Shown here: positions 22,741 through 37,222 of the stretch, piece by piece
Numbering within the stretch: position 1 is the first letter of the stretch
Layout of the letters: every line of letters begins with the position of its first letter
NCBI GenBank assembly: GCA_947628965.1
Contig: CANRBV010000001.1
Span: 41,225 to 105,224 of the forward strand
From: an uncultured Bacilli bacterium
GTDB lineage: Bacteria; Bacillota_I; Bacilli_A; RF39; UBA660
Direction of reading: 5' to 3'
Length of the DNA stretch: 64,000 nucleotides
The notes under the pieces: model-generated
Database searches by the model: none
Seen by the model: the letters and a program-made list of their open reading frames with translations, nothing else
Told to the model about the DNA's origin: nothing
Translations under genes and position numbers: made by a program

Positions 22741-23640
22741 TTAAATTTTATTTTTTTTCTTCTTTTTAATAAGAAAATATCCACCAAGCACAAGAAGCAA
22801 AGCAACAGCAAAACTAATTAAAATGTATTTTAAATTAAAAGTTTTTGTTTCTTCTTGTTCATTTTCTTCAAGGATTTCATTTTTTTCATCTGTTTTGTTT
22901 TCTACTTCATCTTCTTTACTTACATCTGTTTCGTTTGTATTTGCATCATTATTTATAGTATTGTTGTTTTCAGTAGTAGTATTAGAACTTGCATTATTAT
23001 TAGTAGTAGTAGTACTTGTATTCTTATTCGTAGTACTCGTATTTTTATTTTCTTCTTTTTCTTTATCTTGTTCTTTATTTTTATCGGTACTAGAAGACTC
23101 CTCTTTAGAAGAAGTATCTTCCTCTTGGTTTTCACTACTATTTATTTTATAAGTAAAGTTGTTTTTTTCAACTTCAGGAGTAATTTCATGAGACTTCCAA
23201 GCATTATCTAATGTTGTTAAAGACCCACATTGAATCGTATAGGAGATATCTTTTTTACTAGAAGTATCAAATAGAATATTTCCTAGTACTAAATCTTTAT
23301 CGATATTTAATAAATTGTGACTTGTTCCTACGCCACCTGTTACTACAACAATATTTAATTCTTTTGTTTTATCATCATAAGAAGTTTTTGTAGTAAAATT
23401 ACTACTTGTTAGTTTGCTATCTAAATTCATTTTTTGAAAGTTGATATTTCCATCTACTTTTAACGTAATATCAAGTCCTCCAATAAAACCATCTTCAAAA
23501 TGTAAAACGGATTTTATATTTCCATTACCCTCTTCGTGAAAAGTTAACTTTGTTGCAGCGTTTACAGAAGAAAGAGAAAGAAATAAACTGAGTACCAAAG
23601 TGGTAACAATTTTTATAAATGTTCTTTTCATTCTCTTCAC
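22741..23640 (-). CDS. Secreted membrane-anchored surface protein: N-terminal beta-rich (possibly cohesin-like) module, S/T/N/E-rich linker, C-terminal TM anchor
   Basis: Signal peptide; about 150-aa beta-strand-type segment; low-complexity linker; C-terminal hydrophobic helix + KKKKKNKI tail; 4-nt overlap with the giant upstream gene. Confidence 0.6.
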   Translation of the reverse strand: MKRMKRTFIKIVTTLVLSLFLSLSSVNAATKLTFHEEGNGNIKSVLHFEDGFIGGLDITLKVDGNINFQKMNLDSKLTSSNFTTKTSYDDKTKELNIVVVTGGVGTSHNLLNIDKDLVLGNILFDTSSKKDISYTIQCGSLTTLDNAWKSHEITPEVEKNNFTYKINSSENQEEDTSSKEESSSTDKNKEQDKEKEENKNTSTTNKNTSTTTTNNNASSNTTTENNNTINNDANTNETDVSKEDEVENKTDEKNEILEENEQEETKTFNLKYILISFAVALLLVLGGYFLIKKKKKNKI

Positions 23641-26600
23641 CTCTTATTACTAATTTCCATTTGTTTTAACTTACTATATTCTTTTAAATCCTTTAGAACA
23701 ATTGATGTACTTGTTAATCGTTGTCCTTCATGCGTAATAGCATCATTTACACGATATAGATAAGCTCGAATACTGGTGCTAGACTTTCTCATTTTTTCGT
23801 ATTCTTCTTTACTCATAACATATAGCCACGTTCCATTTGCAACATCATAAACCGTATGATCACTATTTAATTCAGCAAAGATTAATTGATATCCGCCATA
23901 GACTTTTGCCTCATCATTACTATCTGCAATTAATACTGTATTAAACGCAGGGTTACCACGATAAGAACCTTCTATAACAACAGATCCAGCTGTAATTTTA
24001 CCATCTGGGTCGTTTTCACAACCACTTTCTAAATAACAATAATCACTTGTTAATACACCAATATTTGTAATATCGACATTATCTCCTGGAGGAGCAATCA
24101 CATCAATTTCTGCACCAGATAAAACATTATTACCATCAGATTCAATCTTAATATAATTTATATCATTATAAGTCCATAATTGACTTTCACTATCAGTATT
24201 TTGTCCCATGAAGTAAATGATTTCTTCTGGTTTTTCGCTTGTTAAAGTAAACGTACCTTTTCTTGCAAGATGCCAATCATTATCATTTCCTGTAGAACTT
24301 ACATATACTTTATATTTAGTAATTGTATTTTCATCTAGTTTATCATTTTCTACTAAGGCATGATACTTAATACCACTTACAGACATTCTATTATTTAAAT
24401 TTAATAAAACATAAGCATTTCCATTATCCACTGTAATACTTGGTTTATCACTGGTTTGATTTAAAGTTTTTACTTTTTCTGTGCCTTTAAATCCTGTTTC
24501 AATTTTACCATCAATTAAGTTGTTTACTTTTAATGTAGCATAATCCATTTCTTCGTTTTCATTATCGACAATTTCATTTGCTTCTTTTACATTTGAAGTA
24601 ATACTAAAGGCATCCTTTTTAACACTACCATCATGACTTATTTTTACTTCTTCTAAAGTAACTTCATTCGTTTTATGTAAATAATAATCATAAGCAACCA
24701 CACTATATGTATAAGCTCTATTATTTTCCGCTCCAACGTTGTCAACAAATTCATTCGTACCCTTTTCAACAAAGCCAATAGAAACACCATTACGAAGAAT
24801 TTCATAACCTAAAATCTTATCGTTGTCTTTATTAACATTAAACTCTAAAGTAACACGTTTATTTTGACTATCAGCATCTCTAATAGAAGATTCTAAAATA
24901 TTGGCACCTTCATTAATTCCAACACTTTGACGCAAAGCAAAACGTCTTGCTTGATCATTTAAGTAGTAAATCGCTCTTTTTTCTTTTGCATAGTTTAATT
25001 CTTGTAATTCTTCTTTTAAAGAGCTAGATGCTTTTAATCCCCAAATTTCAAAAAAGTTCGTTAAGTCTTTCTTGACAGCCATACAAGCATAAAGAATAGT
25101 TAAATCGTCTCTAGAATAATTTTTGGTATTCTTATATGTACGAGCAATTTTATTTATTTTTGCGTAAATTGAATTTTGATCTTCAAATGTTTTTTCATTA
25201 TCATAAGCAAGATGTAATTGCCAGTACATTCCTAACTGAACAAAAACATTTTGAGCTCTTCCCGTTGTATGGGAAGTTACTTTTTCATAAATTTTATCAT
25301 AACCATTGTTTTCTAAACGGGAAGGATCACTATCATTGCTTGTTTGAGCAAGCAAAGAATAAATATTATTCGTTACTTCTGCAAAAACAGTATCTTTTAA
25401 ATTGATTTGATGTCCAACTTCATGACTAATACCCCATCCAAAATAACCTGTTTTGGTATTACTATTGCGACTGGCTTGAACAAGGCCTGCAATTGAACCA
25501 TATTCAATGCCTATATGGTAACCTCCAGCATACATAAAAGCTCCATCAAACATTTGCATATAACGAACATTAATTCTCGCTTTTGGCATTTTATCCGTTT
25601 TTTCTGTTTGGTCTGTATCACTAAATCCTTTTTGACGATAGAATAGTTCCATCATTTCATCGAAGGCTTCCATAGATTCATATAAACGATTTGTTTTTTC
25701 TTCAATGGTTTTTTTATTTGATTTTAAAGCATCTTCTACAGCTACACTGGAAACGGACAACAAACCGTATTTTGTTACAATTTCTGTAGAGCCTAAAACA
25801 CTTTTTTGTTTATCAAAGCTTTTTCCGATAGATGCATAAGCACTTTCTAAAGTACTATTGTAATTTTCTAATTCTTTAATATATTTTTTTATTGCTGCTT
25901 TTTTATCTGTCTCATTTTCCAATAAGGTTGTATCAACCATTGGAATTTTAGTTCCTCCACTTACACGCACTTTTATTGGATTAGTAGTACTAGGTGTACT
26001 TGTATAGCGAATATAAACGCTTCCACCACGTTCATCAGTAGAAGAACCAATTTGTGGAACTGTAATAATATTTAAACCCTTATGTAAACTTTCCGTTGTA
26101 TAAGCTTTATTCCATTCACTTGCTTCAGCATGGTATTGAGTAAATATCACTTGGGCATTAATTGCCCCATTACTTCCAACATAAACATTGATTGTCTCTC
26201 CAGGTCTAGCAACAATTCCTAAAGGTTGATAATCACTAATCGTCATTGCAAATTTAACATGACCATTATACGAATTGGAAATGTTTGGATTTAGAGTAAT
26301 AACATCATCAATATGTTCATCATTTAATATTTTCTCCGCATAATCCAAATCTGCAAGTACGCTATCTTTATAAGGAGAATACTCTCCATTATCTTGTTCA
26401 TTTGCTCTTTTTCTTAATTCATTAATTTGCTTTTGATCTACGCCCTCTGCTAGGACAAGACGAAGATCGTCTGTAAATAAGGCAGCAACATCGTCCACTA
26501 ATGAATCGTAATGATAAAATTTTACTTCATCAATTTTAATATCACGAACATTTCCAGCAACAGTTAATCCAAATGCTACCGCTTTAGCAGTAATTGGATT

Positions 26601-28808
26601 TTCTAATTTTAATACATAGTATTTACGTCCCTTTTCATCTTGTTTTGAAAGAAGGGTTCCTTTTACTTCTTTACGCTCTGTATTGTCATAAATCTCTTGG
26701 TTAGACTCCCAATAATGCAATTTAACATCATTGCTATTTGGTCCACCAGATTTTAAAGAAGCCGCATAATTATCTGGAACTGTTAAGACAAATTCATCCA
26801 TTTGATAGGCATTATCTAAAACAATCACTGGGGTTCCTAAGTTGTAAGCACCATTTGCTGAAATTTGCCAATCATTATGATACCAATAAGTGTCATAATG
26901 GTCATCAACAATCGCAAATTTATTATCATTCGTCATGGTTCCCGTATGATAGAATACGTTTTCAATATGATCAGTTTTCTTATTTTTTTGATCATAACCA
27001 CTATTAATTAATTTATATTTTGGTACAATTGCAGCACCTGCTTCTTTCGTAGTTGCTTTTACTAAAGTATAACTATCACTTTCTCCTAAGTCATTTACTC
27101 CAAGTACATAAGCTTCATATTCAGTATCAGCTTTTAACCCACGTACAGAATAACTATTTGTCGAAATAGATTCTACAACAGAATAAACAGCCGTTCCAAC
27201 TTCACGATAATATAATTTATAAGATTTGGTATCGTCCATTTTTTTCCAACTAAAGTCTATTCCTCCATAGGTAGGAGTTGCAACCACCATATCTACTTTT
27301 GGTGGTTTTCTTGTTGCTTGTGGAGTTCCTTCGTGAGCATCACTCCAACCACTACGCCATTCTTGATTTACAGATTGAACGTATATATAATATGTTTCAT
27401 AATTTTTTAAATCTTCAATTGTAAAGGTTGTAAAAGTAGTTTGGAAAATAACTCCACTTTCCATTTTAGGCCCTACAATCTTAATTTCATAACCTGTTAC
27501 ATTTGGTACATCGTGAAAAGTAATAGTTAGTTGTTCACTTTTTGTATCATCAACATGAATATTTTGAGGAACATAAAATCCATCTGGTTCTTTTGTTTTT
27601 GTTTTAACATTATTTAAAAATTCTACTTTTGCTATATCTGCTAAAGTATTTGAAGAAGTTTCGGTAATTATAATAGTTACTTTTTTAACAGCAACTTGTT
27701 TTCCTAAGTCTACTTTAATTGTCCCTTCACTTGCTTCGTCTGTAAATAAATGTACTTCATTTAAACCTTGTAAAGTATCATCTACTTCATATTCAAGAGT
27801 TTCATTATCCTCTGTTAAAACGAGTAATTTCATTTTTTTAGGAATATTTTCTTCTCCTATTCCAATTCTAATTTCACTCATTTCAACAGTTTCACTATTA
27901 GAATTTTTTCCTAAATCAAGTGCAAACTCAATTGGATTATCTATAGAAATAGCTTCTTCATTTGCAGATTTTAAAGTTACAATTCCTGTATCACTAAATA
28001 AATCACTTAAATTACTTTCCTCACTAATTGTTGTTCCATTTGCTACTTCTAAAGACACATTTTCATTATTCATGATAAGACTTGTATTTTCAATTTTAGC
28101 ACTTTCTTTTTTAGAATTTAAAATTGCTGTTATGTAATTTAAATCTGCAATATCAACAACTCCATCTAAATTTAGATCATTTTTCGTGTCATTATTTTTA
28201 ATAGATTCCATTAAAATCTCTTCATCTTTTTTATTTACTTGATTGTCTTGATTTACATCACCAATTTCAAACATTCCAGCTTCATTAGATAAACTTATTC
28301 TTTTAGAAAAATCATCTAAAGTAACATCTACGCTATAGGTTACAAAATGGTTCCCGCTAAGTTCTAAAGTATACTTTCCTGTATTTAGTGAATATAAATT
28401 CATACTATAGTAAACTATATTTTCACTAGTAACGTCTCCTGATAAAACAAAACCATTCGTATTTCGTTTTGTAATTAAAGAACGGATAGTTTGTGTACCT
28501 AATTTAATAGAAGTTTCTAAAATACCATCTTTAGCGTTTTTCATTTCATTTAATGAAATAGAGGCTTTGTTATTATTTTCATCAATAATGGATAAAGCAA
28601 TATTTGTTTCTTCTCTATTTCGAAAAGGAAGAGCTAAATGAAGTTCTACTTCTATATTCCCTTTTTCTTGTATATCTCCTAAAGCAATACTACGAGTTTC
28701 TTCCCTTGTTTCCATTGCCAAAACAATTAAAGGTGAAAAATTATAAAAAAGCATTGCCCATATTAATAAGATTGATACTAGTTTATTTAAAATTTTCATA
28801 CTAACCAC
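23637..28808 (-). CDS. Giant secreted multidomain protein (1723 aa) with dockerin-like Ca-binding repeats, FN3-like modules and an M60-like/enhancin-type HExxH zinc-peptidase domain
   Basis: Signal peptide; GDVNQDNQVN...DLNLDGVVDIADL dockerin repeats; GWGISHEVGHQ zinc-binding motif. Confidence 0.7.
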   Translation of the reverse strand: MVSMKILNKLVSILLIWAMLFYNFSPLIVLAMETREETRSIALGDIQEKGNIEVELHLALPFRNREETNIALSIIDENNNKASISLNEMKNAKDGILETSIKLGTQTIRSLITKRNTNGFVLSGDVTSENIVYYSMNLYSLNTGKYTLELSGNHFVTYSVDVTLDDFSKRISLSNEAGMFEIGDVNQDNQVNKKDEEILMESIKNNDTKNDLNLDGVVDIADLNYITAILNSKKESAKIENTSLIMNNENVSLEVANGTTISEESNLSDLFSDTGIVTLKSANEEAISIDNPIEFALDLGKNSNSETVEMSEIRIGIGEENIPKKMKLLVLTEDNETLEYEVDDTLQGLNEVHLFTDEASEGTIKVDLGKQVAVKKVTIIITETSSNTLADIAKVEFLNNVKTKTKEPDGFYVPQNIHVDDTKSEQLTITFHDVPNVTGYEIKIVGPKMESGVIFQTTFTTFTIEDLKNYETYYIYVQSVNQEWRSGWSDAHEGTPQATRKPPKVDMVVATPTYGGIDFSWKKMDDTKSYKLYYREVGTAVYSVVESISTNSYSVRGLKADTEYEAYVLGVNDLGESDSYTLVKATTKEAGAAIVPKYKLINSGYDQKNKKTDHIENVFYHTGTMTNDNKFAIVDDHYDTYWYHNDWQISANGAYNLGTPVIVLDNAYQMDEFVLTVPDNYAASLKSGGPNSNDVKLHYWESNQEIYDNTERKEVKGTLLSKQDEKGRKYYVLKLENPITAKAVAFGLTVAGNVRDIKIDEVKFYHYDSLVDDVAALFTDDLRLVLAEGVDQKQINELRKRANEQDNGEYSPYKDSVLADLDYAEKILNDEHIDDVITLNPNISNSYNGHVKFAMTISDYQPLGIVARPGETINVYVGSNGAINAQVIFTQYHAEASEWNKAYTTESLHKGLNIITVPQIGSSTDERGGSVYIRYTSTPSTTNPIKVRVSGGTKIPMVDTTLLENETDKKAAIKKYIKELENYNSTLESAYASIGKSFDKQKSVLGSTEIVTKYGLLSVSSVAVEDALKSNKKTIEEKTNRLYESMEAFDEMMELFYRQKGFSDTDQTEKTDKMPKARINVRYMQMFDGAFMYAGGYHIGIEYGSIAGLVQASRNSNTKTGYFGWGISHEVGHQINLKDTVFAEVTNNIYSLLAQTSNDSDPSRLENNGYDKIYEKVTSHTTGRAQNVFVQLGMYWQLHLAYDNEKTFEDQNSIYAKINKIARTYKNTKNYSRDDLTILYACMAVKKDLTNFFEIWGLKASSSLKEELQELNYAKEKRAIYYLNDQARRFALRQSVGINEGANILESSIRDADSQNKRVTLEFNVNKDNDKILGYEILRNGVSIGFVEKGTNEFVDNVGAENNRAYTYSVVAYDYYLHKTNEVTLEEVKISHDGSVKKDAFSITSNVKEANEIVDNENEEMDYATLKVNNLIDGKIETGFKGTEKVKTLNQTSDKPSITVDNGNAYVLLNLNNRMSVSGIKYHALVENDKLDENTITKYKVYVSSTGNDNDWHLARKGTFTLTSEKPEEIIYFMGQNTDSESQLWTYNDINYIKIESDGNNVLSGAEIDVIAPPGDNVDITNIGVLTSDYCYLESGCENDPDGKITAGSVVIEGSYRGNPAFNTVLIADSNDEAKVYGGYQLIFAELNSDHTVYDVANGTWLYVMSKEEYEKMRKSSTSIRAYLYRVNDAITHEGQRLTSTSIVLKDLKEYSKLKQMEISNKR

Positions 28809-28877: not shown

Positions 28878-31163
28878 TTATCGATTTTTTTCTTTATATG
28901 ATATATCTCGTTTAATGGAATATAATTTTATTAATTGTTCATAACTTATTTGTATTACTTTTCCACCTTTAGGATTTATCTTATTTCCGAAAACAATCCA
29001 AATAACATCCATAGGAATATCAGGCATACTTGCTATTCCATCAGTAAATATTATTTTATTTTCAACTCTTTTAGTAAATGCGCGAACAGCTACATTAAAG
29101 TCAGTTCCACCATTTCCTTCAAGTCCTTCAAATCCCATATTTTCAATATCTGCTTCAGTTCTTATTTCGTGAAAGCCATAAAATTTCGTATCAAAACAGC
29201 CAACTTTTATCTTTGAGTACGGTAAGATATTTAAACATTCTCTTAAAAAATTTTTTAGCAATCTTTCATTTACAGAACCGCTTGTATCCAATAAAATTTC
29301 TGTTTCTGCCTTTGGTTGTTCTTCTAAATTAGCATGTATAACGTCGTCTTCAATATAGGCATTTTTATAAGACCAATCAACATCGTATTGAATTGGTTCT
29401 TTTAATATATATCTCCAATCTATTATCGGTTTAGATTTTCCTATATCATTTATGATTCTCTGTTCGCTATTAGTAGATGTTCCAGCTTCCATTGCTTCTT
29501 GAGATACAGTTTCTATTGCTTGTTGAGATAAAACTTGCTTTAATTCTTCTAATTCTTTTCTCTTTTCTTCTAAATTTTTTTTAAAAGCGCTTTTCTCGCC
29601 CATTTTACTAATTTTGCCTATCTCTTGTTGTAATCTTTTTTCTTGTTGATTTTGTTCTTCCATTTGTTGCTCATCATCTTGAAATTCTTTTTTATCTTTT
29701 GATTCAGCTTCTTTTAGTTTTTTTACTGCATCTTTCCACATACTATGAGTATCATGACCTACATCATCATTTTGTTCTTCAGAAGGAATTGATTCTGATG
29801 AAGAAGTTCCTTGCCCTTGTGATTGATTTTCATTTTGATTTTGAGATTCATCTAAAGAACTTTGGGATTGATCTTGTGATCTTTGTTCAGATGTGCCCTG
29901 TTGATTTTGTGATGAACTTGTTTGTTCCTCACTTTTCTCTTCATTTTGTTCATTAGATTGAGATTCTTTTTTATTTTTTGATACAGCTTCTTTTAATTTT
30001 TTTACTGCATCTTTCCACATACTATGAGTATCATGACTTACATTATCATTTTGTTCTTCAGAAGGAATTGATTCTGATGAAGAAGTTCCTTGCCCTTGTG
30101 ATTGATTTTCATTTTGATTTTGAGATTCATCTAAAGAACTTTGGGATTGATCTTGTGATCTTTGTTCAGATGTGCCCTGTTGATTTTGTGATGAACTTGT
30201 TTGTTCCTCACTTTTCTCTTCATTTTGTTCATTAGATTGAGATTCTTTTTTATTTTTTGATACAGCTTCTTTTAATTTTTTTACTGCATCTTTCCACATA
30301 CTATGAGTATCATGACTTACATTATCATTTTGTTCTTCAGAAGGAATTGATTCTGATGAAGAAGTTCCTTGCCCTTGACCTTGTTGTCCTTGTTTAGAAG
30401 ATGATGAACTTTGTTGATTTTGTTGTGAATTGGATTGTTCTTGATTTTGTTCTTCATTTTGAGTTTCAGAATTTTGCCCTTGTGATTGATTTTCGTTTTG
30501 TTTTTGAGAACCTTTTGAAGAACTTTGCCCTTGACCTTGTTGCCCTTGTTTAGAAGATGATGAACTTTGTTGATTTTGTTGTGAATTGGATTGTTCTTGA
30601 TTTTGTTCTTCATTTTGAGTTTCAGAATTTTGCCCTTGTGATTGATTTTCGTTTTGTTTTTGAGAATCTTTTGAAGAATTTTGCCCTTGATCTTGTTGTC
30701 CTTGTTCAGAAGATGATGAACTTTGTTGATTTTGTTGATTACCTTGACCATTTTGTCTTTTACTTTGTTGCTTTTCTTTAAGTAATTTATCATAAAACTC
30801 TTCTGCATCGTAATTTATTGCTTCTGCAATATCTACTACACCATCAACAAGTTTCAACCCATCTCGTTTTAAAAATTGATTTATTACACCATCTGTTGCT
30901 ATATTCCAAACATAAGGATCTTTATTTTCACTTCTTCTTATATGATCAAACGCTATATGGCATACCTCATGAGCAAATATAAAAATTTGTTCATCTGTGT
31001 TAAGATTTTTTAAAAATTCTAGATTATAAAATATCGTTTGTCCATCAGTACATGCAGTTGATATTTTTTTATTCTCTCTATAGTTTACATTTGCAACTAC
31101 ACTCCCAAAGAAAGGGTATTTTACAAGCATTTTTCTTTTTACAGATTCAATATTAAAGTCCAT
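28878..31163 (-). CDS. HExxH metallopeptidase-like N-domain + long Q/S/N/E-rich repeat region + C-terminal vWA domain (COG3864/DUF2201-like, MoxR partner)
   Basis: FIFAHEVCHIAFDH (HExxH); C-terminal LLDTSGS MIDAS (DxSxS) motif; sits with a MoxR-like AAA ATPase. Confidence 0.7.
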   Translation of the reverse strand: MDFNIESVKRKMLVKYPFFGSVVANVNYRENKKISTACTDGQTIFYNLEFLKNLNTDEQIFIFAHEVCHIAFDHIRRSENKDPYVWNIATDGVINQFLKRDGLKLVDGVVDIAEAINYDAEEFYDKLLKEKQQSKRQNGQGNQQNQQSSSSSEQGQQDQGQNSSKDSQKQNENQSQGQNSETQNEEQNQEQSNSQQNQQSSSSSKQGQQGQGQSSSKGSQKQNENQSQGQNSETQNEEQNQEQSNSQQNQQSSSSSKQGQQGQGQGTSSSESIPSEEQNDNVSHDTHSMWKDAVKKLKEAVSKNKKESQSNEQNEEKSEEQTSSSQNQQGTSEQRSQDQSQSSLDESQNQNENQSQGQGTSSSESIPSEEQNDNVSHDTHSMWKDAVKKLKEAVSKNKKESQSNEQNEEKSEEQTSSSQNQQGTSEQRSQDQSQSSLDESQNQNENQSQGQGTSSSESIPSEEQNDDVGHDTHSMWKDAVKKLKEAESKDKKEFQDDEQQMEEQNQQEKRLQQEIGKISKMGEKSAFKKNLEEKRKELEELKQVLSQQAIETVSQEAMEAGTSTNSEQRIINDIGKSKPIIDWRYILKEPIQYDVDWSYKNAYIEDDVIHANLEEQPKAETEILLDTSGSVNERLLKNFLRECLNILPYSKIKVGCFDTKFYGFHEIRTEADIENMGFEGLEGNGGTDFNVAVRAFTKRVENKIIFTDGIASMPDIPMDVIWIVFGNKINPKGGKVIQISYEQLIKLYSIKRDISYKEKNR
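29690..30790. repeat. Intragenic near-identical tandem repeats: 3 x 279 nt (about 29690-30370) and about 2.7 x 156 nt (about 30370-30790)
   Basis: Read in the DNA (gatacagcttcttttaatttttttactgcatctttccacatactatgag... at 29701/29980/30259; ccttgaccttgttg[t/c]ccttgtttagaag at 30373/30529/30685). Identical antisense ORFs offset by 279 nt in the track. Confidence 0.9.
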
Positions 31164-31173
31164 AATTTATTCC

Positions 31174-31569
31174 TCAAATATGAGCAACTAATGAATAAAT
31201 TTCTTCATTAATTGTTTCTTTATTTATATTTGTAGCTGTTAAAATGATTCTTGTGTTTTCTGGTATTTTAAATGTGGACACTTGTCTATACTCTAATAAT
31301 TCTTTAAATTTTAATTGCTCTTCTTTAGAGATACTATCAATATCTTTTATAACTATTATTTTAGCTTCATTTGTATTAGTTAAATCATAATACCATTTAG
31401 GAGCTAGGAAATCTACTCCCTCATAATAACCATTCAATTCTTTTGTTTCACAATTTGCTGGTATTATTACAGATTTTGGAATACTGATATTAGATGCAAA
31501 ATCAATAAGAATAGGAGCAACATTAATTGAAAGATAACTGTTTAACATATTCATTTTATCATTATTCAT
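31174..31569 (-). CDS. Hypothetical 131-aa protein, middle gene of the ATPase/vWA operon
   Basis: 4-nt overlap with the upstream ATPase gene; 10-nt gap to the vWA gene. Confidence 0.55.
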   Translation of the reverse strand: MNNDKMNMLNSYLSINVAPILIDFASNISIPKSVIIPANCETKELNGYYEGVDFLAPKWYYDLTNTNEAKIIVIKDIDSISKEEQLKFKELLEYRQVSTFKIPENTRIILTATNINKETINEEIYSLVAHI

Positions 31570-33494
31570 TTTTTTCTACCTCCCGCAGCAAGTCTGGCTT
31601 CAGCAATTAATTCTAGTCTAGATTCATCACCATGTGACCATAACGAATCAAATATTGCCCCAAACTCCGCTCCTAGACTTATTACGAAACTTCTTACTTT
31701 TGCCATATTTTTTTCGTCAACTTGAGAAAGACCCATTGTCGTAGCATATCTGGAGGCAGTATTTAATGATTGTATGTCTAGTCCACTATAGGTTCCATTT
31801 ATTACATCATTTAACGTTATAACTGGTTGATTGCAGAACTCTAAAAATTCTCTAGTTATATCTTCTCCCACTAAAGCTCTTAACATTCCTGGGCTTCCAG
31901 TAGCGTAAAGCATTTTAGAAGCCATTTCCCATTTTCTAGGATCAGCATTTGGCTTTACACCATTATATTGACTTCTTAATACTGCACCTTTTCTATAAGC
32001 TATATAGGAATAAATTGCAGGATGAATATTATGTTCACTTGCCCATTTTAACCATCCATCCGTTGTTGTTCTGATATATACATGTGCAAATCTATTAAAT
32101 AATGGTTCGGCTAATTGATTTGCTGATAAGGAATCTTTCATCTCATTACCAGCAGCAACTATTCTTGCATTATCTGGTAGTTGCCATATTCCATTTACTT
32201 CTCTATCCAAAATAATGTTAAAAGCTATTCCTTGAATACTAGGCAAAGCATTTGTTATCTCATCAAAGAAAACGATATGTAATTTATCAGGTTCTGCCTC
32301 ACATTTAGCTTCTAATTTTTTTAACCATGTAGGTTTTATATCAATCATTTCACCTTTTTCAGAATTATAAGCACTTTTTCCATTTAAACTTTCAGGTGTT
32401 GCATTTCTTAAATATATAATGACACAATCAGGGTCAATTTGTTTTACTCTTGCGCTTTTTCCTTCACTTGAAGCACCATGTAAAAATACAGGCACTCTAC
32501 TTGCAATTGCACCTTTAATAATTTCTTCTTCACTGACTTGTCCAAAATTAAATCCATAGGGATTGTTTTTTTCACTTCTTTCTGAATATTGATAAGAAGT
32601 ATTTTTTACTTTTTCAATTTCTTTTTGGTGCTGATTAGAAGTTTTGCCAGAATTTGCTTGTATCACTTTAGTTTTACTTGATACTATATCTCTTACAAAA
32701 TAAGTATTTAAAAAATCATACATATCTGTGCTGGTCCAATCAGAATCAGAATAAAAATAACCATCTTTATTAAATCTTATTCCCGATGCAATTATATTTT
32801 TGCTTAACATAACCTTTTTAAAATTATCAACATACCATTTAAGTGGAGATACCTCTATCCAAACAATATCTCCATTTTTATATTGTTCTCCATTTGAAAG
32901 TAAAGAAACACGTGGATTTCTATTATACACTCTTACATATTTTCTTCCATTATATTCAAATTCCTCATTTTTCATTGGGTAAAATCTTGTCAGTTTATCA
33001 TCGCATTTGATGGAATCCGTTGTATATGTTTTTCCAGTTTTTTTTAATATTGTACCAGATTGATATGCTTGTTCCAAATCATATTCCATAGATGAACTAA
33101 CGACATATTGTGGATATTCTCCATACTCTATTTCTACAAACCTATGTGGTAGTATTCTCGTTATTCCATTTGAAGAGTTAGATTGGTGAACGTCTAATAT
33201 AGTTGGGCGAACTCCATTTGTCCTAGTTCCAGCAGAAAATTTACTGATAGAACCATTTATATCAACAGCAAGTGGATTTCCTTGTCCATCAGAGCTCATT
33301 AAATTGTAATTACCTGTGTGCCCTTTTAAAGAATTATCATAATTTACATAAACATCTTCAGAAACGAAACCTCCTAATAATATAGCAAAATCTGTTATTG
33401 CACACTTTGCACCCATATTTTTTTTAATCATTCCATTAAAATCATAAATTTGTTCTGCATTAAGTAATGTAATTTCACCACTACCAAAATTCAT
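31566..33494 (-). CDS. MoxR-like AAA ATPase with an uncharacterised ~320-aa N-terminal domain
   Basis: Walker A GASSEGKS; Walker B IVFFDEITNA; AAGNE sensor region; no recognisable motif in the N-terminal half. Confidence 0.65.
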   Translation of the reverse strand: MNFGSGEITLLNAEQIYDFNGMIKKNMGAKCAITDFAILLGGFVSEDVYVNYDNSLKGHTGNYNLMSSDGQGNPLAVDINGSISKFSAGTRTNGVRPTILDVHQSNSSNGITRILPHRFVEIEYGEYPQYVVSSSMEYDLEQAYQSGTILKKTGKTYTTDSIKCDDKLTRFYPMKNEEFEYNGRKYVRVYNRNPRVSLLSNGEQYKNGDIVWIEVSPLKWYVDNFKKVMLSKNIIASGIRFNKDGYFYSDSDWTSTDMYDFLNTYFVRDIVSSKTKVIQANSGKTSNQHQKEIEKVKNTSYQYSERSEKNNPYGFNFGQVSEEEIIKGAIASRVPVFLHGASSEGKSARVKQIDPDCVIIYLRNATPESLNGKSAYNSEKGEMIDIKPTWLKKLEAKCEAEPDKLHIVFFDEITNALPSIQGIAFNIILDREVNGIWQLPDNARIVAAGNEMKDSLSANQLAEPLFNRFAHVYIRTTTDGWLKWASEHNIHPAIYSYIAYRKGAVLRSQYNGVKPNADPRKWEMASKMLYATGSPGMLRALVGEDITREFLEFCNQPVITLNDVINGTYSGLDIQSLNTASRYATTMGLSQVDEKNMAKVRSFVISLGAEFGAIFDSLWSHGDESRLELIAEARLAAGGRKK

Positions 33495-33804
33495 ATTTCA
33501 CCTCGTTCGCATATCATTTACATATATTTTACCATAAAATATTTAATAATAATATGTCAAAAAGTATAGTTTACAAAAATAAAGTAAAATATAGGAAATA
33601 AAATTAAAATTGACTTGATTTATGATTTTTTTGTTCTTCTTTATTTTTGAATAAAACTAAAATCTCGTTAATAACTATATTTTTATTGTGTAAATTTCAA
33701 ATTCTGTATCATTCTATTTATGATGTTACTAAAAAATACACAAAAAAATGTTATATCGGTATTTATTGATATAACATTTTAAGTGTTTAGTTTAAAGCAT
33801 TCTA

Positions 33805-36177
33805 TTATTTATCTCTTAATTTTGCTTTAAATGTTTCTTCTACTTTTTTTATTATTGCATTAAAAACTTCCATTACTTCTTCTTCTTGTAAAGTTCTTGT
33901 TTCATCTTTAAAGGTTAATTTATAAGCAATAGATTTTTTACCCTTTTCTATTTCAGGATATAAATCAAATACTTCACAAGTTGATAATATTCTTTTTCCC
34001 GTGTGAACAATTTCTTTTTTAATGCTTTCACTATCAATTTCGTTCGCTACAATAAAAGCTACATCTTTTACAATTTCTGGATATTTATTTGCTTCTTTAT
34101 ATTTTATAGGTTTAATACTTGCTTGATCTAAAATATTCATAGAAAGTTCACAAACAAAAAGTTCTTCTTTTAAAATATTTGGGTGTATTTTACCAATAAT
34201 ACCTACTCTTTTCTTATCTAGATAAATACTTGCACTAACTCCTGGATGTAAGGAATCTATTTCTTCACTTACAAAAGAAAAACGATTTTTAAAACCTAAG
34301 TAGGTAAGTAAGTTTTCAACTATTCCTTTTAATAAATAAAAGTCTGCTTTAATATTTATTCTTTGCCATTCATTTGTTAGATAGTTTCCTTTCATTAAAA
34401 TTGCTATTTTTGTTGTTTCATTAAAATCTTTATCATAAGTTTTAGCAATTTCATAAATATTGACATCCTTAACGTTTCTCTTTTTATTATATTCGTAGGT
34501 ATTTAATAAAGAGGGTAAAATGCTTGTACGAATAATACTTTTATCAACACTCATTGCATTTGGTAAAGTAATTGGTTCTTTTTGATCATAACAAAATAAT
34601 TTAGCCATTTCAGGACTAATTAAGGTATATGTTTTTACTTCGTTTAAACCAAGTGTTCTTAAACGTTTAGAAATTTCTTTTCGTATTTTAACATCTCCAA
34701 CATATTCTCCCATTCTAGTACTGGCAGTAGGCAAAGTAGAAATTAAGTTATGATAACCATAAAGTCTTCCAATTTCTTCAGCAATGTCGTTTACATTTGC
34801 ATCAATATCTAATCTCCTACTTGGAATTGTTACCATAAATACATCTTTTTCTAAAGTATAAGGAAAACCTAAACGATCCAATTCTTTTTCCATATCTTTT
34901 GTTTCAATAACTATACCAAGCATTTTATTTACATCTTCGGCTTTAAAATTAACTATTTTTGGTGTTTTATCGATTACATCATGTTTTACAGTATCCTTTA
35001 GTATAGTTGCATTAGCGTATTTTTCAAGTAAATGACAAGCTCGGTTAATAGCCATATTTGTATACTCATAACTTAAACCTTTTCCATAGCGAATAGATGC
35101 TTCGCTTTTTAAATTCAAATGACTTGCTGTATTTCGAATAGAAACAGCATCAAAAATTGCACTTTCTATTAAGATTGTTTTCGTATTTTCATCAACTTCA
35201 GTATTTTCTCCCCCCATAACTCCAGCGATACAAACTGGTTTATCGCCATCGGTAATTACAATATCGCTTGATTTTAAAGTTCTCTTTTTACCATCCAAAG
35301 TAACAATTTGTTCGTTTTCCTTAGCATCACGTACTAAAATATGATCTTTTAATTTCTCCTTATCAAAAAAATGAAGAGGTTGTCCAAATTCAAGCATAAC
35401 ATAGTTAGAAATATCAACAACATTATTAATTGGGCGCATTCCAGCAGCAGTAAGTCTTTTTTTAATAAATTCTGGACTTTCTTTAATTTCAACATTTGTT
35501 ACCATTTTGGCAAGATAATAAGGGCATTTTTTAGTTTCGACTTCTAATTTAAAATGATTTTTTATAGAATCACTATTTTCTTTATATTCTAGATTTGGTA
35601 ATGTTACTTTTTTATTTAGAATAGAAGCAATTTCATATGCGAAACCAATATGATAAAAACAATCATTATTACGATGTTTATGAATATCTAGTTCATACAA
35701 AGTATCATCATAACCTAAATATTTTAGTGCATCTACACCAACTGATGCTTTATTATCAACTTCATAAATTCCTTTTTGATAATTTTCTTCTGTTTTTTCT
35801 TCTAGTCCTAATTCAAATAAAGCGCAAAGCATACCATTGGATTCTACCCCACGAATTGTACTCTTTTTTATTTCAAAATCTCCAGGAAGTATTGCTCCTG
35901 GCAAAGCAACAATCACTTTTAAACCTGCTTTTACATTTGGGGCTCCACATACAATTTGGTAAGTCTCTTTTTCATTTACTTTTACTTGGCAAATATGCAA
36001 ATGGTCGCTATCTGGATGCGGTAGACATTCTAAAACTTCTCCAATTACTAAATGATCAATATGGTTCGTTATTACTTTTTCTACATTAATTCCAGCTTTC
36101 GTAATTTTTACTGCTAATTCTTTTAAATCCTCATCTTTAATATCTACATAATCACTTACCCACTCTAAACTAATCAT
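33805..36177 (-). CDS. pheT: Phenylalanine--tRNA ligase beta subunit
   Basis: MISLEWVSDYVD N-terminus; tRNA-binding, B3/4, B5 and FDX-ACB layout; follows pheS. Confidence 0.9.
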   Translation of the reverse strand: MISLEWVSDYVDIKDEDLKELAVKITKAGINVEKVITNHIDHLVIGEVLECLPHPDSDHLHICQVKVNEKETYQIVCGAPNVKAGLKVIVALPGAILPGDFEIKKSTIRGVESNGMLCALFELGLEEKTEENYQKGIYEVDNKASVGVDALKYLGYDDTLYELDIHKHRNNDCFYHIGFAYEIASILNKKVTLPNLEYKENSDSIKNHFKLEVETKKCPYYLAKMVTNVEIKESPEFIKKRLTAAGMRPINNVVDISNYVMLEFGQPLHFFDKEKLKDHILVRDAKENEQIVTLDGKKRTLKSSDIVITDGDKPVCIAGVMGGENTEVDENTKTILIESAIFDAVSIRNTASHLNLKSEASIRYGKGLSYEYTNMAINRACHLLEKYANATILKDTVKHDVIDKTPKIVNFKAEDVNKMLGIVIETKDMEKELDRLGFPYTLEKDVFMVTIPSRRLDIDANVNDIAEEIGRLYGYHNLISTLPTASTRMGEYVGDVKIRKEISKRLRTLGLNEVKTYTLISPEMAKLFCYDQKEPITLPNAMSVDKSIIRTSILPSLLNTYEYNKKRNVKDVNIYEIAKTYDKDFNETTKIAILMKGNYLTNEWQRINIKADFYLLKGIVENLLTYLGFKNRFSFVSEEIDSLHPGVSASIYLDKKRVGIIGKIHPNILKEELFVCELSMNILDQASIKPIKYKEANKYPEIVKDVAFIVANEIDSESIKKEIVHTGKRILSTCEVFDLYPEIEKGKKSIAYKLTFKDETRTLQEEEVMEVFNAIIKKVEETFKAKLRDK

Positions 36178-37222
36178 TATTTTTCTCCCTTCTATCAAAA
36201 TCTCTTATTTCTCTTAAATCAGTTTGATAAAATGTGCGAATATCACTAATGCCATATTTAAGCATTGCAAGTCGTTCTGCTCCAAAACCAAATGCAAAAC
36301 CACTCCATATATTTGGATCATAGCCACAATTTTTCAAAACATTAGGATGTACAATTCCAGCACCACTTACTGTAATCCATCCTGTATTTTTACATAAAGA
36401 ACAACCTTTTCCTTTGCAAGCAAAGCAAGAAATATCTGTTTCTACAGAAGGCTCGGTAAATTGGTAATAACTTGGTCTAAAGCGAACTTCACAACTTGAA
36501 CCAAATAATTTTTTAAAAATAGCATCCATTGTACCTTTTAAATCTGAAAGACTAACATTTTTATCGACAAGCAAACCTTCAATTTGCATAAATTGATGCG
36601 AATGGGTTGCATCATCATCATCTCTACGATACGTTTTTCCAGGGCAAATCATACGAATTGGCTTATCTCCACCCGCTTTAAGCATGGTTCTTGCTTGCAC
36701 TGGAGAAGTTTGACTACGCAACAAAATTTCTTCTTCTTTTATATAAAATGTATCTTGAGCATCTCTTGCAGGATGACCCTTTGGTATATTTAACAATTCA
36801 AAATTAAAACGATCTTCCTCTATTTCTGGTCCATCCACTACATCATAGCCCATAGACATACAAATATTTTCTATTTCTTCAATAATGTGTTCTAAGATAT
36901 TAGGTGCACCTAAAGGTATCTTTACTCCTGGTAAAGTAATATCAATTTTTTCCTTTTCCAACTTTTCTTTAATTTCTAAATCCTCATAATACCTTATTTT
37001 TTCTTCAATTTGAGAAGTAATTTCATTTTTTAAATCATTTAATATTTTTCCAAATTCTCTTTTCTCTTCATTATTTAATTCTTTTAAATGCATTGTTAAT
37101 TCATTAATAGGGCCTTTTTTTCCTAAATATAAAATTTTTAACTCATTCACTTCTTTTAAATTTGTTGCTTTTTCAATATTTGTTAAAGCTTGTTCTTTTA
37201 ATTTTTTTACTTTTTCATTCAT
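36170..37222 (-). CDS. pheS: Phenylalanine--tRNA ligase alpha subunit
   Basis: Class II aaRS motifs (HPARD, FRPSYYQFTEPS, GFAFGFGAERLAML); start set at MNEKVKK with GGAGG RBS. The longer track ORF runs through the leader terminator. Confidence 0.9.
   Translation of the reverse strand: MNEKVKKLKEQALTNIEKATNLKEVNELKILYLGKKGPINELTMHLKELNNEEKREFGKILNDLKNEITSQIEEKIRYYEDLEIKEKLEKEKIDITLPGVKIPLGAPNILEHIIEEIENICMSMGYDVVDGPEIEEDRFNFELLNIPKGHPARDAQDTFYIKEEEILLRSQTSPVQARTMLKAGGDKPIRMICPGKTYRRDDDDATHSHQFMQIEGLLVDKNVSLSDLKGTMDAIFKKLFGSSCEVRFRPSYYQFTEPSVETDISCFACKGKGCSLCKNTGWITVSGAGIVHPNVLKNCGYDPNIWSGFAFGFGAERLAMLKYGISDIRTFYQTDLREIRDFDRREKNND

Follow-up and report, generated by a model that had tools for sequence, protein, structure and literature searches.

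A vWA domain carrying a metal-ion-dependent adhesion site (MIDAS) is the usual docking partner of MoxR rings, and MoxR–vWA pairs such as NorQ/NorD are maturation factors. The published ternary classes of MoxR–vWA systems have as their third component VMAP, iSTAND, FtsH or a beta-propeller fused to the vWA protein (Kaur et al. 2020, PMC7159879), and C-type lectin (CLec) domains diversified by diversity-generating retroelements (DGRs) have been proposed as antigen sensors of MoxR/vWA/peptidase systems (Dore et al. 2024, PMC10907252; PMC7159879). Here we describe a three-gene cassette in a 64,000-nucleotide stretch of contig CANRBV010000001.1 (hereafter the window), from the genome of an uncultured Bacilli bacterium (G000; a 1.23-Mb bin, 91% complete, from a rabbit-gut metagenome). 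It encodes a AAA+ ATPase with an N-terminal module (the head), a 131-aa protein and a 761-aa protein that combines a metallopeptidase domain with a vWA domain (Table 1). In related loci the head is the variable domain of a DGR, and we infer that the cassette is a variant of the DGR-linked MoxR–vWA conflict systems, with a presumed function in defence. We are confident of the architecture of the cassette and of the relationship of its family to DGRs, and much less so of the mechanism.

The cassette family shares with the systems of Kaur et al. and Dore et al. a DGR, comprising an accessory (Avd) gene, a template repeat (TR) and a reverse transcriptase (RT), that varies a ligand-binding domain coupled to a MoxR ATPase, a vWA protein and a peptidase. 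In both, the target is predicted to be cytoplasmic and the proposed logic runs from sensor through ATPase to peptidase effector. In those systems, however, the variable domain is a C-terminal CLec carried either by the vWA protein or by a separate target, whereas here it is an N-terminal head on the ATPase; the vWA partner here is of the DUF2201_N/DUF2201 zincin–vWA type; no VMAP, iSTAND, FtsH, beta-propeller, EAD or Trypco component is present; the hosts are small-genome gut Bacillota (Bacilli_A, Clostridia) rather than multicellular Proteobacteria or Cyanobacteria; and the copy in the window is without a DGR. A preliminary description of the locus had likened it to the predicted vWA–MoxR conflict systems; it does not belong to their ternary classes, as none of the third-component domains was found by Pfam in any of the three proteins and the third component is instead a P-loop-less AAA paralogue. 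DUF2201 is unmentioned in the paper that defines those classes (PMC7159879), and the bpMoxR profile does not match the window ATPase.

DGR-linked variation of the ATPase head

Searches with the ATPase gave 292 matching stretches among 185,579 species-representative genomes, from which 75 loci were kept for comparison. In L021–L024, the ATPases of which are 60–64% identical, a 338–339-aa RT (RVT_1, 8e-19) lies 90 nt upstream of the ATPase and is preceded by a 193-aa protein with a weak bAvd-like match (E 0.01). The RT carries the motif LGNQSSQ (GxxxSQ type), which we take to be typical of DGR RTs. Between the Avd-like gene and the RT lies a TR of 80–100 nt that copies ATPase nucleotides ~199–316 (codons ~70–105), the variable region (VR). 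Over 10 species-level loci, 108 of the 114 TR/VR mismatches fall at template adenines and no adenine is found in the VR alone; in loci of the same genus as the window, 9–17 of 11–20 mismatches per locus do so. Near-identical strains with ATPase genes differing at 23–29 of 1929 nt have 12–16 of these differences, over half, inside the 100-nt VR, mostly at template-adenine positions. Because the TR matches the VR, the mismatches lie at template adenines, and an RT and an Avd-like gene adjoin, these sequences argue that the head family is a DGR variable domain whose VR lies towards the 5' end of its target. The DGR link is independent of any assignment of the head fold. Such N-terminal placement is rare, with three N-terminal VRs among the 372 DGRs of Wu et al., who also list targets with a Midasin-like AAA motif from the candidate phyla radiation (CPR); the head–ATPase architecture of the present family is not described in the DGR surveys consulted.

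A full RT and Avd-like gene were found in 13–14 of the 75 loci and RT fragments in 7–8, the remainder having neither. All four full-length carriers in the same genus (G002, G004, G007 and G008) have a full DGR cassette upstream of the ATPase. In a census that covered 36,145 genera, 63 of them carriers, an RT lies within 5 kb of the head module in 12 of the 63, compared with fewer than 3 at random places. By likeness band, the counts are 3 of 33 (below 20%) and 9 of 27 (20–39%), with fewer than five carriers tried in the 40–59% and 60+% bands.

Sequence divergence follows the same division of the protein. Column entropy is ~1.0 over residues 1–280 and 0.05–0.4 over the AAA half, with its peak at residues 61–100; the stretch equivalent to the VR has the highest entropy in the protein family. 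The nearest relatives are 38–52% identical in the head and 80–87% in the AAA half. Loci lacking an RT often have 2–5 tandem ATPase paralogues with heads 38–90% and AAA halves 80–98% identical, the values at L028 being 45% and 97%. Because the DGR rewrites head codons ~70–105 in relatives, the head would be the specificity determinant of the ATPase family.

The same-genus TRs (L014, 6063-6145, in G007; L015 in G008; L016, 5852-5934, in G002; L017 in G004) each contain an in-frame TAA (TAG in G004) at VR codon ~76. At that codon the VR reads TGG and TCG in two of the genomes, and TGA and TAG in the other two, whose ATPase genes are interrupted exactly there. This arrangement suggests that the DGR may write an ON/OFF switch into its target ATPase. 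RT fragments (~90–290 of 339 aa) lie directly upstream of the ATPase in L034, L041, L058, L059, L060, L074 and L091, which suggests in-place decay of the DGR beside an intact triad. Tandem paralogues in RT-less loci were recorded at L028, L061, L063, L066, L075 and L096, and at L061 the entire ATPase–ATPase–small–vWA unit is repeated.

Structure and relatives of the head

An AlphaFold2 (AF2) model of the head, built on 32 sequences, is one confident domain (predicted local distance difference test (pLDDT) 87; predicted template modelling score (pTM) 0.88). It ends at about residue 280 and is followed by a low-confidence linker (residues 282–310). A search of 1.8 billion representative proteins returned 1495 representative homologues of the head; among the top 150, 72 are stand-alone, 58 have other C-terminal extensions and 15 have a AAA domain of this family. 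In P0123 (818 aa) and other representatives the head is fused either to DUF4116 repeats or to uncharacterised C-terminal domains of ~300 aa, which form a family of 23 members and match nothing in Pfam. This distribution suggests a module that may have been shuffled onto several different output domains.

Weak signals liken the head to a DUF6273 or C-type-lectin-like domain. DUF6273 is the one Pfam family matched among head relatives (5 of 32, best E 0.001); P0123 matches it at 8e-6 over the part that aligns to window residues ~7–100, and the nearest Atlas clusters to the head carry DUF6273, with scores of 0.88–0.89. The window ATPase itself has no DUF6273 match in Pfam at E 0.1, and Foldseek returned no match to the head model. 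The order of its motifs, judged by eye, raised the idea of a circularly permuted DUF6273 domain, which we do not claim. Elsewhere the same genome encodes one canonical DUF6273 protein (G000:C25:2505-3026, L013; 428-aa frame, 30 bits), with no linkage to the cassette.

DUF6273-type DGR targets of gut phages (tentaclins and Mtd-like proteins; PMC10743442; bioRxiv 10.1101/2024.10.15.618418) resemble the present family in having gut Bacillota hosts and a VR with a conserved end, ...G-V-R-P, in a variable domain that in the present family may be DUF6273-like; in the tentaclins, as here, the VR is also found close to the 5' end of its gene. These proteins are, however, extracellular virion receptor-binding proteins fused to Ig or FN3 domains, whereas the heads described here are predicted to be cytoplasmic and are fused to an ATPase, and the DUF6273 match of the window protein itself is below threshold.

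The AAA+ half and its degenerate paralogue

In the C-terminal half of the ATPase, Walker A (GASSEGKS, residues 340–347, 32454-32477), Walker B (IVFFDE, residues 407–412, 32259-32276), sensor-1 N450 and R468 of the NRF motif are invariant across 16 homologues. The protein matches phrog_1297 (ATPase) at 1e-43 and the Pfam family AAA_5 below threshold (17.5 bits versus a cut-off of 22, E 0.004). Foldseek matches the AF2 model of residues 312–642 to NorQ/NorQD, MoxR (2r44), MCM and dynein AAA modules with probabilities up to 1.0, NorQ and MoxR (both 1.0) being the best compact matches. Queries of the PDB by sequence, made with the full-length ATPase and with profiles of the AAA and vWA domains, gave nothing useful, with no sequence-level match to a solved chain. 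Motifs, profile and fold matches, and a neighbouring vWA/MIDAS gene together place this half among the MoxR-like AAA+ ATPases (helix-2-insert clade, AAA_5). The vWA partner (DUF2201, DTSGS), two genes downstream, is retained in all 67 of 67 related loci. Gene 1 apparently encodes a divergent but competent MoxR/NorQ-type ATPase. Minor-depth variant contigs in the source sample have 8 and 19 differences over 32229-32572, where the AAA domain starts. Their probable source is another strain, or a related organism with the same conserved AAA half.

The 131-aa protein is related to this same region. Aligned by hhalign, the profile of its family matches the ATPase AAA region with a probability of 93% (E 2.8e-7), residues 7–116 pairing with ATPase residues 324–453, which form the AAA alpha/beta core. 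BLASTP of the two proteins gives E 0.005, and the 131-aa protein also matches the clamp loader family phrog_168 (2e-4). Its P-loop is deleted, the DE pair of Walker B is replaced, there is no arginine at the finger-equivalent position and the lid domain is lacking. The alignment makes it a paralogue, without a P-loop, of the AAA core of the ATPase itself. The family keeps a length of 130–133 aa in 55 loci, and the small gene is missing from a Clostridia subgroup at ~50% identity. DUF2201_N lies within 3 kb of the 131-aa family in 6 of 6 and 9 of 9 carriers of the upper likeness bands and in 12 of 90 of the lowest, versus fewer than 3 at random places. The 137-aa product of the middle gene of phage nACB1 was considered as a homologue and rejected (BLASTP E 5; hhalign probability 0.1%).

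Complex prediction of the 131-aa protein with the ATPase AAA half gave an interface score (ipSAE) of 0.81 (best control 0.00), a mark that 58 of 80 solved complexes attain, as do 2 of 110 mismatched pairs, although the predicted interface has the geometry of a AAA protomer–protomer contact and the score may partly reflect that likeness. The runs agreed in at least 92% of contacts, with a partner pLDDT of at least 87. On the ATPase, the interface comprises P-loop residues 342–343 and 347, Walker B residues 411–412 and the lid; on the 131-aa protein it is the stretch equivalent to the arginine-finger region, without the arginine. The model thus predicts a pseudo-protomer that is docked on the nucleotide face and caps or gates the ATPase.

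The peptidase–vWA protein

In Pfam, the 761-aa protein matches DUF2201_N (2e-34, 119.7 bits; cut-off 23.2) and the VWA-like family DUF2201 (6e-10, 39.7 bits; cut-off 26.4), and among PHROGs it matches phrog_1314 (5e-60). Its HExxH motif (HEVCH, residues 65–69, 30957-30971) is kept in 63 of 67 relatives and the DxSxS of its MIDAS (DTSGS, residues 626–630, 29274-29288) in 67 of 67. No relative departs from E66, H69 or H74, and H65 is nearly invariant; conservation in the protein is highest in the vWA domain (mean column identity 83%). The peptidase-domain profile matches MJ1213 at E 3e-5 and M48/BepA weakly. MJ1213, which we take to be 'selecase', a minigluzincin of the M48 clan, has the same HExxH catalytic core; it is a solved minimal zincin of 110 aa that stands alone, whereas here the domain forms the N-terminal part of a vWA protein. 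Literature searches for DUF2201, PF13203 and PF09967 returned no functional study.

Between the two domains, 80% of linker residues are Q, S, N, E, K, G or D. Tandem Repeats Finder (TRF) detects two in-frame arrays (29679-30377, 279 nt × 2.5, 98% matches; 30369-30737, 156 nt × 2.4, 97%), and the spacing from HExxH to MIDAS is 561 aa here versus 196–416 aa in 62 relatives. Judged by those relatives, the family as a whole has a long polar linker, and only its extreme length is local. Three independent contigs from other samples with an identical ATPase (L111–L113) all stop ~550 nt into the vWA gene, and no Logan contig spans 29748-30068 or 30306-30636. Because independent assemblies break within the linker repeats, the repeat copy number, and hence the length of 761 aa, may be an assembly estimate. 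A 163-aa minus-strand open reading frame (ORF) in another frame within the repeats (30317..30808) was treated as a low-complexity by-product.

Distribution and genomic setting

Uncultured gut Bacilli ("Tenericutes"/RF39-like) and Clostridia make up most of the hosts of the ATPase family. At least one cultured species-representative genome, that of Zhenpiania hominis BX12, has a version of the cassette that lacks the middle gene. Within the genus to which the window belongs, a relative is present in 5 of the 24 other genomes, four of them with the cassette at 29–51% identity. The fifth (G018; L018, G018:C67) has a 391-aa ATPase without a head and keeps the small and vWA genes; two short ORFs upstream of that ATPase may be remnants of a head.

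The position of the cassette varies. It lies between pheT and an M60 peptidase gene here and between rpsR and rpmE in the closest relative, and position 3' of pheT recurs in L057 and, with a weak pheT match, in L027. In congeners without the cassette other genes follow pheT, including the genome with the closest pheT orthologue (87% identity); the slot is variable across the genus, with different genes in each of four congeners (L104–L107). The window cassette and L109 are flanked by housekeeping genes with no mobility genes nearby, and in the DGR-bearing L024 and L032 the cassette lies among type IV secretion system (T4SS) genes (TrbL, PrgI, VirB4-like, CHAP) and serine recombinases. Recombinases also adjoin L053, L055, L065 and L074. 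Neighbouring genes differ in every locus examined, and no conserved candidate client gene accompanies the cassette. Among 2.9 million viral contigs a peptide-pattern scan, which is no proof of absence from phages, found one related locus. Because of its occurrence in 5 of 24 genomes of the genus, its shifting chromosomal sites and its T4SS and recombinase neighbours, the cassette is accessory and patchy, sometimes borne on an integrative and conjugative element (ICE), and not housekeeping.

Locus layout

The three genes are co-directional and tightly packed, genes 1 and 2 overlapping by 4 nt, in a window of 27% G+C. The pheS–pheT genes lie on the same strand immediately 5' of the cassette, with pheT at 36198..33805 and a spacer of 311 bp between it and the ATPase gene. 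Reading of the sequence shows an AT-rich hairpin and a T-run after the pheT stop, and a GAGGTG ribosome-binding site before the ATPase start codon. We offer as a suggestion that the promoter-like site of Table 1 may serve the cassette; the number of such sites in the region is not above that in shuffled controls. No transmembrane segment or signal peptide was found in any of the three proteins, which are predicted from their sequences to be cytoplasmic. NCBIfam gave no meaningful match. Matches of the 131-aa protein to DUF1392 (E 0.056) and of the vWA protein to lpg0008 (E 0.002, 17 bits versus a cut-off of 330) were set aside as noise.

Table 1 Coordinates of the cassette and its parts in the window.
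Feature	Codons	Position	Strand	Description	Basis
Gene 1		33494..31566	minus	642 aa, head + AAA+ ATPase fusion	ORF and translation, phrog_1297, AF2/Foldseek
Head (N-terminal module)	1-280	32655..33494	minus		AF2 domain and homologue search
VR-equivalent (MSSDGQGNPLAVDINGSISKFSAGTRTNGVRP)	~66-100	33195..33299	minus	Fixed here, without template repeat	Alignment to relatives' VR
AAA+ alpha/beta core and lid	312-642	31566..32561	minus		Invariant columns and Foldseek
Gene 2		31569..31174	minus	131 aa, degenerate AAA+ core paralogue	
Gene 3		31163..28878	minus	761 aa, zincin peptidase + disordered linker + vWA (MIDAS)	
Minigluzincin-like metallopeptidase domain	1-135	30759..31163	minus		HExxH conservation and profile
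Q/S/N/E-rich disordered linker	136-599	29367..30758	minus		TRF and composition
vWA-like domain	600-761	28878..29366	minus		DUF2201
Promoter-like site		33531..33560	minus	TTGACA-18-TATGGT, ~37 nt 5' of ATPase ATG	Consensus scan

Most of the preliminary description of the components stands: the three genes with their overlap, the MoxR-type AAA core in the C-terminal half of the ATPase, and the HExxH peptidase, MIDAS and repeat-expanded polar linker of gene 3 were all recovered, and their distribution across the genus shows that the genes are not housekeeping. Of the Pfam families it anticipated, DUF2201_N and DUF2201 exceed their cut-offs and AAA_5 does not. It had placed the cassette directly upstream of pheST, where in fact it is directly downstream. 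The ~320 N-terminal residues that it could not recognise prove to be a widespread module, shorter by some 40 residues and a DGR target in relatives, and of the features it took for lineage-specific elaborations only the extreme length of the linker is local; the head is mobile and widespread, a long linker is found family-wide and the small gene is a degenerate AAA paralogue.

Immediately 3' of the cassette lies a gene for a 1723-aa protein (23637-28808, minus strand) with M60-like/enhancin peptidase, M60-like_N and FN3 domains. It is likely to be a secreted enzyme that degrades mucin or glycoproteins.

Proposed function and alternatives

The cassette looks like a self-contained cytoplasmic module of three proteins, sensor, motor and protease, that is accessory in gut Bacillota. 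In the mechanism we propose, the variable heads would capture a cytoplasmic, probably foreign (phage or mobile-element) protein. Ligand binding would alter ring assembly or ATP turnover, gated by the 131-aa pseudo-protomer, which would sit where a neighbouring protomer would place its arginine finger. The vWA-coupled peptidase would then be activated, or be given the captured substrate, and would cleave either that substrate or a host target, with an immunity-like conflict with invading elements as the outcome. Lineages without an RT would use tandem paralogues with divergent heads in place of a DGR. This conflict mechanism, from sensor to ATPase to peptidase, we find as easy to doubt as to believe.

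Several observations weigh against it, beginning with the genome in which the window lies. RVT_1 was not found in G000 (91% complete), tblastn of the RT and the Avd-like protein against it gave chance-level matches only, and it holds no TR-like copy of the VR region; the VR-equivalent of the window no longer aligns to any TR. A cognate RT and TR in the same genome, which mark a DGR target, are thus present for the protein family and absent for the window gene. The window copy has a fixed specificity, with nothing diversified here now, and could be drifting; its VR-equivalent shows no minor variants in the source-sample contigs, which drop rare variants. No component has a credible match in PADLOC-DB 2.0, the sole match being a spurious 16-bit ThsB-like one at ATPase residues 159–211. 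The diversifying conflict system of the preliminary description is supported in part: the DGR-variable head of relatives strengthens it considerably for the family, but this locus has no DGR, no known defence-system model matches it, and its role in defence is conjectural. The core pair is, furthermore, not intrinsically a defence module, because lytic N4-like phages and jumbo phages commonly have MoxR and peptidase–vWA pairs (698 phage records, none reaching 30% identity), and for the jumbo-phage pair a role in virion assembly, not in defence, has been proposed (Iyer et al. 2021, PMC7824862) by the same laboratory that described the ternary classes. The ICE-borne loci are equally compatible with a function that serves the element. 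Finally, we infer what the module acts on, what triggers it and in which direction the signal passes.

The phage pairs have the same families in identical gene order, with a AAA_5/MoxR-like ATPase adjoining DUF2201_N and DUF2201 (phrog_1297 and phrog_1314). They differ in that their ATPases (~370 aa) have no N-terminal variable module and are less than 30% identical, their linkers are short, they have no DGR, and in phage nACB1 the product of the middle gene shows no relationship to the 131-aa protein.

The absence of a DGR here has a counterpart across the family. On a AAA-domain tree (FastTree, midpoint-rooted, suggestive only) the window copy belongs to a clade none of whose members shows an RT, and the RT-bearing loci are deep and scattered. 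A history of repeated DGR loss would fit this tree, because the RT-bearing loci are scattered and the window clade is RT-less. The window locus has a single ATPase copy with its motifs intact.

Among other explanations, the one that fares best has the cassette serve a mobile element. An ICE-carried adaptable binder–protease would remove proteins of the recipient, such as defence factors, exclusion factors or those of competitors; the DGR would track variable targets, and RT-less chromosomal copies would be stranded remnants. The setting of L024 and L032 among T4SS genes and serine recombinases, the recombinases at the four other loci and the abundant use of the core pair by lytic phages for purposes of their own all speak for it. 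Many loci, however, the window and L109 included, lie between housekeeping genes with no mobility genes near, the peptide-pattern scan of the 2.9 million viral contigs found the family motifs at one locus alone, the RT-less chromosomal copies keep their catalytic motifs intact, and the tandem paralogues look like diversification of a sensor on the host's side. We regard this explanation as unlikely.

More doubtful still is an assembly chaperone with proteolytic maturation, in which the ring would remodel a client selected by the head and the peptidase would trim it. NorQ/NorD, CbbQ/CbbO and RavA/ViaA likewise combine a helix-2-insert-clade AAA+ ring with a MIDAS vWA partner, and pairs of the NorQ/NorD type are maturation factors, with NorQ among the structural matches of the AAA half. 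The Pfam and PHROG families are moreover identical to those of the phage pairs, for which the assembly role is a published proposal (PMC7824862). Each of the three classical pairs, however, has one enzyme client, conserved adjacent to it, and has no peptidase, variable head or pseudo-protomer; here no conserved client gene goes with the cassette and its neighbours change from locus to locus. Nor would DGR hypermutation, a template-encoded stop and tandem divergent heads be expected for a housekeeping client.

We think it equally improbable that the window cassette is a decaying relic left after DGR loss, without current function and with linker repeats that reflect relaxed constraint. The missing RT, Avd-like gene and TR, a VR-equivalent unlike any template repeat, the longest linker in the family and the RT fragments that show DGR decay at other loci would all suit a relic. 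Its three ORFs, however, are intact in a genome of 27% GC, a composition prone to stop codons; Walker A, Walker B, sensor-1, the arginine finger, HExxH and MIDAS are all present, the entire RT-less clade retains an intact triad, and other samples contain an identical ATPase. An ordinary housekeeping MoxR chaperone pair of the lineage, to which the site between pheST and other chromosomal genes and its recurrence downstream of pheT in L057 and L027 might point, is scarcely credible given occurrence in 5 of 24 same-genus genomes (four at 29–51% identity), the different genes downstream of the closest pheT orthologue, and a family that is DGR-linked and sometimes ICE-linked.

A conflict module is the reading we prefer. 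Its fullest form would be an adaptive-immunity-like module of genome-reduced gut bacteria and ICEs, with DGR-written heads, gating by a pseudo-protomer, a zincin licensed by ligand, an ON/OFF switch set by the TR stop, and germline heads diversified by tandem duplication in RT-less lineages. We put this joint form forward tentatively, and would sooner expect some part of it to fail than all of it to hold.

Implications

Proposals of DGR-diversified intracellular sensors have until now centred on multicellular Proteobacteria and Cyanobacteria. The family described here would extend their host range to abundant gut Bacillota with genomes of 1–1.5 Mb, in a minimal form in which three genes and a DGR make up the whole system. 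It would assign roles to a module of ~280 aa with 1495 representative clusters and to a 131-aa pseudo-AAA protein, and would tie programmable recognition to the MoxR and peptidase–vWA pair of N4-like and jumbo phages. The window locus is a less striking member of the family, and being without a DGR it may serve as a natural control of fixed specificity. With the variable head fused directly to the motor, the path from sensing to action would be experimentally tractable.

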